Shown here piece by piece: positions 30,801-32,208 of a DNA stretch of 64,000 bases. How positions within the stretch are numbered: position 1 is the first letter of the stretch; each line of letters opens with the position of its first letter. The notes under the pieces were generated by a model. The model made no database searches and was not told where the DNA came from. It was given only the letters and a program-made list of their open reading frames with translations. A program made the position numbers and the translations under genes. Origin of the DNA: Eledone cirrhosa. Its lineage: Eukaryota. The stretch lies in the NCBI GenBank assembly GCA_964016885.1, contig OZ024745.1, forward strand, positions 20,584,001 to 20,648,000, written 5' to 3'.

Positions 30801-31392
30801 TATTGGTGCTCTGAAATAGCGATGTATATATGAATGTAAGTATTGCATATTTAATGATATACTGTATTTTTATTTAGAAACATTTTGAAGGCCTTTCGCT
30901 ATGAATTTTTAAGTAGTGACTAACGTCACGTACCTAGTCTCGGCAAAAGCAAAGGGGAGTAATCGACCGTCAAAGTTTCTCACTTGTAAGTGGTTGTCAA
31001 GACTACATATCTCTTCGCTTCTGCCGAGAGCTTTAGAAGCTGGATTCTTATAGAATTCCAGTTATGTTTATATTATCAAATAGGCAATACGCGCATTCAT
31101 ATATACATCGTTATTTCAAAGCACCAATACTAATTTCTAATTTTTGCTGGGCCGTTAACTGCTCTGTATGTTAATGAGTTTAAACAGGTTCTAAAACTCT
31201 TACAAGTGAGAAAAAGTTACCGTCGATTACTCCCCTTTGCTTTTGTCGAGACTAGATACGTGACGTTAGTCACTACTTAAAACTTCATAGCGAAAGTCCT
31301 TCAAAATGTTTCTAAACAAACATACAGTATATCATTAAATATGCAATACTTAGATATATATACATCGCTATTTCAGAGCACCAATACTAATG
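30801..31392. mobile_element. Family E retrozyme-like element: minus copy, then an inverted tandem copy
   Basis: 30801-30990 is the inverse of 31199-31390; GCACCAATACTAAT at ~31121 and ~31378. Confidence 0.75.
30938..31029 (-). ncRNA. Extended type I hammerhead, U3-A8 core (family E)
   Basis: Minus: TCTCGGCAGAAGCGAAGAG..TAGTC-TTGACAA-cCACTT ac AAGTGa-GAA-ACT ttgac GGT-C-GATTA..CTTTGCTTTTGCCGAGA; GUC site. Confidence 0.75.
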
Positions 31393-31874
31393 TATATATA
31401 TACCTTCTCTCCCGGCTTTCGTCGAAAAGAAGTGACATAGTCACTACTTTAAAACTGATAGCGTATGGTCTTCTAAATGTTTTTAATTAAACATACGGTA
31501 TATTGCCAAATATACTATACATATATATATAAATATATATATATATATATATATATATATATATATATATATAGGAAAATGTATGACCCCGACGGCAGAG
31601 CTCAAGCCGTTACAACGGCTATTTCAGTCCAGAGCTCTGCCGTCGGGGTCATACTTTTTCCTATTACCCACTCTACTACCCTAAGTATTGAGTACTCTGT
31701 TGCGTTATGGTCCATCTGGTTCCTTATCACAATTCCTTCGTTATATATATATATATATATATAAATATATATATATATATATATATATATATATATATAT
31801 ATATATATATATATATATATATATATATATATATATATATATATATATATATATATATATATATATATATATAT

Positions 31875-32208
31875 ATGAATGTATATATAGTGTATTTTGC
31901 AATACACTGTATGCTGAATTAAAAGCATTACGAAGACCTTACGCTATTGTTTTAGAGTAGTGACAGTCACACTTAATTTATTTTCAGCAAACAGGGGAGA
32001 TAAAGCTAACAGGGCTCTGTTTCGCACTTTTTGGTGCTTATCAAAGCTAAGTACTCCACCTGTTTGCTGAAAATAATGAATGTTTGATTCTTATAGAATT
32101 CTAGGAATAATCGAAATGCTTTTAATTAAGCAGACAGTATTGCAAAAGACACTCTATATATATTCATATATATATCGCTATTTCAGAGCACCAATTCTAA
32201 TTTTCAAT
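31875..32208. mobile_element. Family E-related element, fold-back
   Basis: Shares GTAGTGAC..GTCAC, GATTCTTATAGAATTC and CGCTATTTCAGAGCACCAAT with 30801-31392; 31875-31930 is the inverse of 32115-32170. Confidence 0.75.
31978..32076 (-). ncRNA. Extended type I hammerhead, U3-A8 core
   Basis: Minus: TTATTTTCAGCAAACAGG tGGAG tactt AGCT-TTGATAA-GCAC caaaaa GTGC-GAA-ACAG agcc CTGT-T-AGCT ttat CTCC CCTGTTTGCTGAAAATAA; perfect 18-bp distal stem I. Confidence 0.85.

Follow-up and report, generated by a model that had tools for sequence, protein, structure and literature searches.

Metazoan non-LTR retrozymes, for which circles have been shown in coral, mussel, and axolotl (PMC7229834), are among the closest described systems to the repeat analyzed here. 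Among the predicted Xenopus retrozymes, one of nine is reported to cleave (10.64898/2026.07.22.740005). The EN+ Penelope-like elements (PLEs) carry a tail of 30-40 bp, often at one end only (PMC8557442, PMC3846280), and in vitro work on the one PLE so studied (PAc) places the tail between two internal start sites of the RT and shows cutting and extension of both target strands; ribozyme mutants of this PLE are described as inserting unimpaired (PMC11167929). A natural hammerhead variant with U3-A8 at the core 3-8 pair has been published (PMC3088659, PMC4209133), and about 1,300 U3-A8 matches are given for the Cercyon PLEs of Schistosoma (PMC4209133). For octopods, the consulted portion of a repeat annotation of Octopus vulgaris lists Penelope-like families and makes no mention of ribozymes (PMC13282606).

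We analyzed a 64,000-nt stretch of the Eledone cirrhosa genome (the window), in which members of a repeat here called family E contain two hammerheads:

31978-32076, minus strand: type I hammerhead with U3-A8 core and GUU site, predicted cut at 32008/32007, stems I-III all intact
30938-31029, minus strand: type I hammerhead with U3-A8 core and GUC site, predicted cut at 30965/30964, degraded stem III

The original prediction of two minus-strand hammerheads at these positions was borne out by their cores, sites, and folding. The 31978-32076 copy has the core TTGATAA at 32044-32038 and a GUU site ending at 32008, and the 30938-31029 copy has the core TTGACAA at 31000-30994 and a GUC site ending at 30965. 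The consensus (C/U)UGAN(G/A)A ... GAAA ... UH was present together with three stems and an open stem I; stem I has an internal loop and loop II measures 5 to 6 nt. The loops of lineage E2, to which the 31978-32076 copy belongs, presumably resemble the Schistosoma motif. The minimum free energy structure of the minus strand at 31978-32076 was the type I hammerhead itself, with a distal stem I of 18 + 4 bp (z = -9.0), and the minus strand at 30938-31029 gave z = -4.5; in both cases none of 200 shuffled sequences folded equally well. The stems differ between the two copies just as had been claimed (stem I TAGTC/GATTA versus AGCT/AGCT, stem II CACTT/AAGTG versus GCAC/GTGC), and distal stem I has ∼18 bp in both. 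The accompanying claim of a true stem III hairpin holds for the 31978 copy, where it has 4 bp, and fails for the 30938 copy, whose stem III departs from its relatives and alone does not fold (0.0 kcal/mol). Rfam returned no match in the window at the gathering score; at E ≤ 10, it gave a sub-threshold Hammerhead_HH9 match over 31986-32061 (23.9 bits versus 52, E = 0.0038) and otherwise microRNA-type noise on the neighboring hairpin repeat and the TA tracts.

The two hammerheads lie in insertions of different lineages, next to a fragment of a third, and all are bordered by (TA)n:

30700-30800, no strand: (TA)n target tract, with others at 31510-31573, 31742-31866, and 32207-32259
30801-31068, minus strand: left arm of the lineage E1 insertion, ribozyme-sense on this strand, outer end tailed and running into (TA)n
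31069-31391, plus strand: inverted right arm of the E1 insertion, a partial tandem with a tailed end
31402-31530, plus strand: fragment of E3, one of the C3-G8 lineages, truncated at its 5' end and ending at the short end in (TA)n
31867-32112, minus strand: left arm of the lineage E2 insertion, ribozyme-sense on this strand, outer end short and in (TA)n
32111-32206, plus strand: short inverted right arm of the E2 insertion, ending in a tail of ∼30 nt followed by (TA)n

The E1 arms are 91% complementary across 169 nt. The right arm reads via tail and spacer into the next unit and contains no intact ribozyme, having lost 35 nt after 31184 and 38 nt after 31198, the latter deletion taking away the core together with the 5' strand of stem I. 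The read-through formerly proposed for 31084-31392 is real, but it is found on the plus strand and not on that of the hammerhead; the first insertion's inverted arm, with its ribozyme half-deleted, accounts for it. This inverted architecture had been overlooked, as had the PLE tail, the (TA)n signature, the C3-G8 lineages, and the published status of U3-A8. No ORF of at least 120 aa lies within 30834-32079, and the ORFs at the edges are frames of the TA repeat.

Several other features were observed in the stretch. A second short repeat family (31571-31740, 14924-15162, 26243-26501, and about 61563-61639) has a long terminal hairpin (z = -7.5) and (TA)n on both sides; it often adjoins family E (loci L002, L024, and L148), no hammerhead was seen in it, and it is possibly another dependant of PLEs or a MITE. 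A 66-bp satellite of about 196 copies with 94% matches occupies 46595-59510. On the minus strand, 15625-20996 is a broken LINE-type element whose endonuclease, RT, and zf-RVT segments lie in different reading frames, and at 44310-45470 a frame encodes part of an RT and then a PHD finger; it may be what is left of a Naiad or other retroelement. Both strands of 1-5300 have open frames within long tandem tracts rich in CAC/ACC, possibly a mucin-like exon. Elsewhere in the genome, locus L048 has at about 2040-2100 a SINE-like motif that we take to be typical of octopus genomes.

The family E unit is non-coding, repeats head to tail, and contains one type I hammerhead; it showed no LTR structure and no coding capacity, and its GC content is 32-38%. 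A tandem unit of roughly 300 nt had been anticipated. Head-to-tail arrays do occur at several other genomic loci, and the actual periods are 315-332 nt, somewhat above that figure: 323 (L022), 328 (L006), 320 (L023), 332 (L054), and 315 nt (L111). The upstream neighbor of a unit is the tail of the previous unit in arrays of two to six or more, and one array (L257) has at least six head-to-tail units. When folded as circles, three units gave z of -4.4 to -6.8 (60 shuffles each). Searching the 3.0-Gb genome yielded 1,671, 3,098, and 2,715 first-look candidates for three lineages, of which 40 per lineage were scored. The 22-nt tail motif had at least 4,493 exact matches genome-wide, compared with none for the reversed control.

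The architecture of the insertions was examined at 102 loci taken in chromosome order, with loci found by queries holding the inversion junction, overlapping loci, and two long arrays left out of the counts. Head-to-head copies with their 3' ends outward made up 54 loci, 47 had one orientation, one was composite, and lone tail-to-tail pairs were seen at none of the 102. The outer ends fell at two sites ∼30 nt apart in 129 of 156 cases, with a TA run no more than 14 nt away for 98 of these 129, whereas the position of the inversion junction varied freely between loci. A refined count began with 56 inverted loci, 12 of which were dropped for having one unassigned end. The 44 scorable insertions comprised 41 with one short end and one tailed end (the latter carrying the ∼30-nt tail), three with two short ends, and none with two tailed ends (p = 8e-10); the short-plus-tailed arrangement also appeared in 29 of the 32 loci of the subset not picked by its tail. 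The E2 insertion of the window obeys this rule, and the E1 insertion has two tailed ends, a combination that none of the 44 scored loci shows. The adjacent E3 fragment begins ∼2 nt or less from the predicted cleavage site; 30801-31530 may represent one event in which the template jumped from a self-cleaved E3 monomer to E1 RNA; counting the E1 insertion and the E3 fragment as one event is speculative, and would remove the E1 exception.

Truncation of 5' ends at the cleavage site was not enriched (11 of 156, p = 0.11, a count that includes two mis-mapped rows, with some E2 coordinates shifted owing to one missed site in the reference array). Since most arms cross the cleavage site, the template would have been a circular or an uncleaved RNA. 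The arms of an inverted pair had a median identity of 0.91 (31 pairs) versus a background of 0.77, yet only 9 of the 31 pairs had the partner arm as the top match; these values establish that the two arms derive from the same lineage, but not from the same molecule. At individual loci, we saw that the two inverted arms at L128:1228-1528 start at precisely the predicted cleavage position, where there is a short palindrome, which fits cleaved templates or microhomology, and that L138 and L133 have a TA run where the inverted arms join, which repair or the RT may have added.

That the ribozyme structure has been under selection was suggested from the two window copies and is supported far more strongly by the family as a whole. 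In alignment A1, composed of 50 units picked across lineages, 93.1% of 1,781 stem cells were paired, and 22 of 36 pairs had changed on both sides. The covariation score was 0.377, compared with 0.221 for shuffled and at most 0.106 for slid controls, exceeding 500 of 500 shuffles and every slid control, for a structure that was drawn from the same sequences and with shuffles that ignore relatedness. By a tree-based count, 20 pairs had switched from one Watson-Crick type to another at least 35 times in total, and G-U cells on the ribozyme strand numbered 119 versus 45 A-C cells. The conservation extends to two small hairpins lying 3' of the ribozyme. In three natural copies, the palindromic stem-loop III had a hairpin energy between 0 and -2.0 kcal/mol, against a self-duplex energy of -6.9 to -20.1 kcal/mol, a pattern ascribed to dimer-competent metazoan hammerheads (PMC4209133). 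Because the stem-loops III of the family are palindromic and form weak hairpins and strong self-duplexes, the monomeric architecture assumed in the original prediction was not demonstrated, and the modeled energies would make dimeric cleavage as likely as monomeric cleavage.

The core 3-8 pair behaved similarly. An anchored pattern that left positions 3 and 8 free, while fixing part of the core, identified 3,036 copies, of which 1,563 were U3-A8 and 1,310 were C3-G8 (94.6% paired). Among 100 position-ordered copies, there were 47 C-G, 45 U-A, 3 U-G, 2 C-A, and 3 other combinations (Fisher p = 2e-21, a statistic that ignores relatedness). With these two positions masked, 94 units were placed on a quick, unrooted tree in which recombination is possible, and nine rows with core states other than U-A and C-G were left out. 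The remaining 85 U-A and C-G rows require two changes of the pair. The two U3-A8 copies of the window fell into different, well-supported clades with C3-G8 lineages between them, and monophyly of U3-A8 was rejected on this quick tree (p-AU 0.008). As judged from the sequences, such repeated compensatory changes, including those of the catalytic 3-8 pair, imply that the lineages which spread needed the fold.

Turning to a possible source of the integration machinery, we found the genome to be rich in PLE ORFs with RT, a C-terminal GIY-YIG, and a cysteine linker as in Neptune; from this linker motif we assign them to the Neptune type. A (TA)n end was common among the PLE loci, and minimal U3-A8 hammerheads were present at 14 of 30. 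A search for an autonomous partner covered 30 GIY-YIG loci and 20 long-ORF loci out of 10,597 first-look GIY-YIG candidates, and within this small sample of 50 none shared a pLTR with family E. One of the 50 held a separate family E insertion, and one had a weak 67-nt match on the opposite strand. In the reciprocal direction, PLE-protein matches occurred at 16 of 150 family E loci; judged from coordinates, none runs directly into a unit, and no RT plus GIY-YIG ORF between pLTRs was present in family E. Locus L062 is an independent insertion located after a PLE's own (TA)n end.

Further hammerheads were noted beside the PLEs. The minimal U3-A8 hammerhead at 29822-29851 (plus strand) is identical to those at positions 571 and 5550 (minus strand) of L182, a full-length Neptune-type PLE with a 938-aa ORF and a hammerhead in both pLTRs. 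Another family, at 62200-62230 and 62712-62742 on the plus strand and at 9526-9496 and 6228-6198 on the minus strand, has the canonical C3-G8 core and the minimal palindromic stem III of the PLE minimal type. An inverted pair at 26651-26695 (minus strand) and 27049-27093 (plus strand) carries a hammerhead-like motif in a (TA)n-flanked element, and related motifs recur near the PLE loci L194, L196, and L199.

On this evidence, family E is probably a non-autonomous PLE, that is, a non-LTR retrozyme copied into (TA)n by a borrowed PLE RT-endonuclease. The long inverted repeats, the TA flanks, and some local tandem arrays might instead point to a DNA transposon of the MITE or foldback kind, or to a satellite propagated by DNA recombination, in which a hammerhead occurs by chance. 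This reading is very improbable and, at the level of sequence, appears largely refuted already: the outer ends keep to two internal positions while the junction moves between loci, inverted arms of at least 40 nt are missing from 47 of 102 loci, and the pairing is biased to G-U on the ribozyme strand. A MITE was rejected for the same variable junction and missing arms, and also for the absence of fixed terminal inverted repeats with a constant interior. A DIRS-like element, with inverted termini and an internal complement, was rejected since the internal copy is the next tandem unit and the junction moves. The copies could alternatively be solo or 5'-truncated pLTR debris of an unsampled autonomous PLE, given that PLE insertions are mostly 5'-truncated with the same tail and inversion marks and that just 50 of the 10,597 candidate PLE loci were examined. 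We regard this as improbable: a previous unit's tail precedes each unit in arrays of two to six or more, the PLE-protein matches at 16 of 150 family E loci were, from their coordinates, never seen running directly into a unit, and family E has an extended type I ribozyme, in contrast to the minimal hammerheads of the PLEs seen here.

The remaining rival departs from the preferred reading in the RNA step alone. It holds that the PLE machinery moves uncleaved linear tandem transcripts, with no circles, while the ribozyme acts at some other step or is weakly active, and we consider it possible, if doubtful. It accounts for the unenriched 5' ends at the cut site, and accords with the reports that PAc inserts using uncleaved RNA (PMC11167929) and that eight of nine Xenopus elements failed to cleave. 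It sits poorly with the repeated compensatory changes that include the catalytic 3-8 pair, with the stable folding of the units as circles, and with the circles that comparable repeats yield in coral, mussel, and axolotl (PMC7229834). The PAc mutants, the single active Xenopus element of nine, and the unenriched 5' ends nonetheless count against a simple cleavage version of the retrozyme.

For the retrozyme reading, we propose the following cycle. Tandem copies would be transcribed, and the hammerheads, acting as monomers or dimers, would cut the multimers to monomers, which would probably then be closed into circles by ligation. The conserved region 3' of the ribozyme would be bound by a PLE protein, which would cut both strands of a (TA)n tract and prime two cDNAs, one per internal start site; the joining of these two 5'-truncated cDNAs would give the head-to-head insertion. 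The mobilizer is likely to be among the Neptune-type PLEs abundant in this genome; we can only infer it because none of the 50 PLE loci shares a pLTR with family E. On this reading, most genomic copies, including the 30938 copy, are decaying, with selection acting on the source lineages. More tentatively, and with less than even confidence, we suggest that each inverted insertion arose in a single concerted step: a dimer of the PLE enzyme would prime both (TA)n strands on retrozyme circles, one subunit being obliged to use the short site and the other the tailed site. If true, this account would prove directly, from the insertions themselves, that retrozymes of animals move by the PLE mechanism, with a ribozyme essential enough for its catalytic 3-8 pair to have been flipped at least two times.

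Compared with the metazoan non-LTR retrozymes (PMC7229834; 10.64898/2026.07.22.740005), family E shares a non-coding, low-GC tandem unit in the 170-400-nt range as described there, a single type I hammerhead in each unit, copies in the thousands, and coexistence with PLEs. It differs in being mostly dispersed head-to-head in (TA)n with a PLE tail and in that about half of its copies are U3-A8, and it is known here from its DNA sequence; the main texts of the two reports make no mention of a tail or of inverted arms. With the EN+ PLEs of Neptune type (PMC8557442, PMC3846280, PMC11167929), as presented in the consulted portions, it has in common partial tandems, an inverted 5'-truncated copy, (TA)n targets, the 30-40-bp tail at one end, and a hammerhead upstream of two 3' ends. 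It differs from them in having no RT/EN ORF, an extended rather than minimal ribozyme, and no sequence match to the sampled pLTRs (50 loci). The non-autonomous Chlamys PLEs, such as MRC1 (PMC8557442), are likewise ORF-less, head-to-tail, and microsatellite-targeting dependants of PLEs; by that account they resemble their autonomous partners at the 3' end and most Chlamys are without hammerheads, whereas family E has hammerheads and no partner among the 50 loci. The published U3-A8 hammerheads (PMC3088659; PMC4209133) have the same compensated core pair and are reported to be active in vitro, and family E differs in holding both states at ∼1:1, with at least two switches, in extended ribozymes.

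A literature search, with repeat libraries (Repbase) outside its scope, found no paper on family E or on a counted short-plus-tailed pairing in a retrozyme. Non-LTR retrozymes, their proposed PLE origin, U3-A8 cores, and the PLE tail are already published, and the gain is incremental because the class, the U3-A8 variant, and the tail were known. The near-obligate pairing of short and tailed ends constrains the PLE integration step, and the copies of many lineages form a natural mutational series for comparing C3-G8 with U3-A8 and monomer with dimer cleavage. Retrozymes have so far been proposed to be PLE parasites from co-occurrence and pLTR similarity; to this, family E adds evidence from the insertion site itself, namely the (TA)n target together with a tail and an inverted arm of PLE type.
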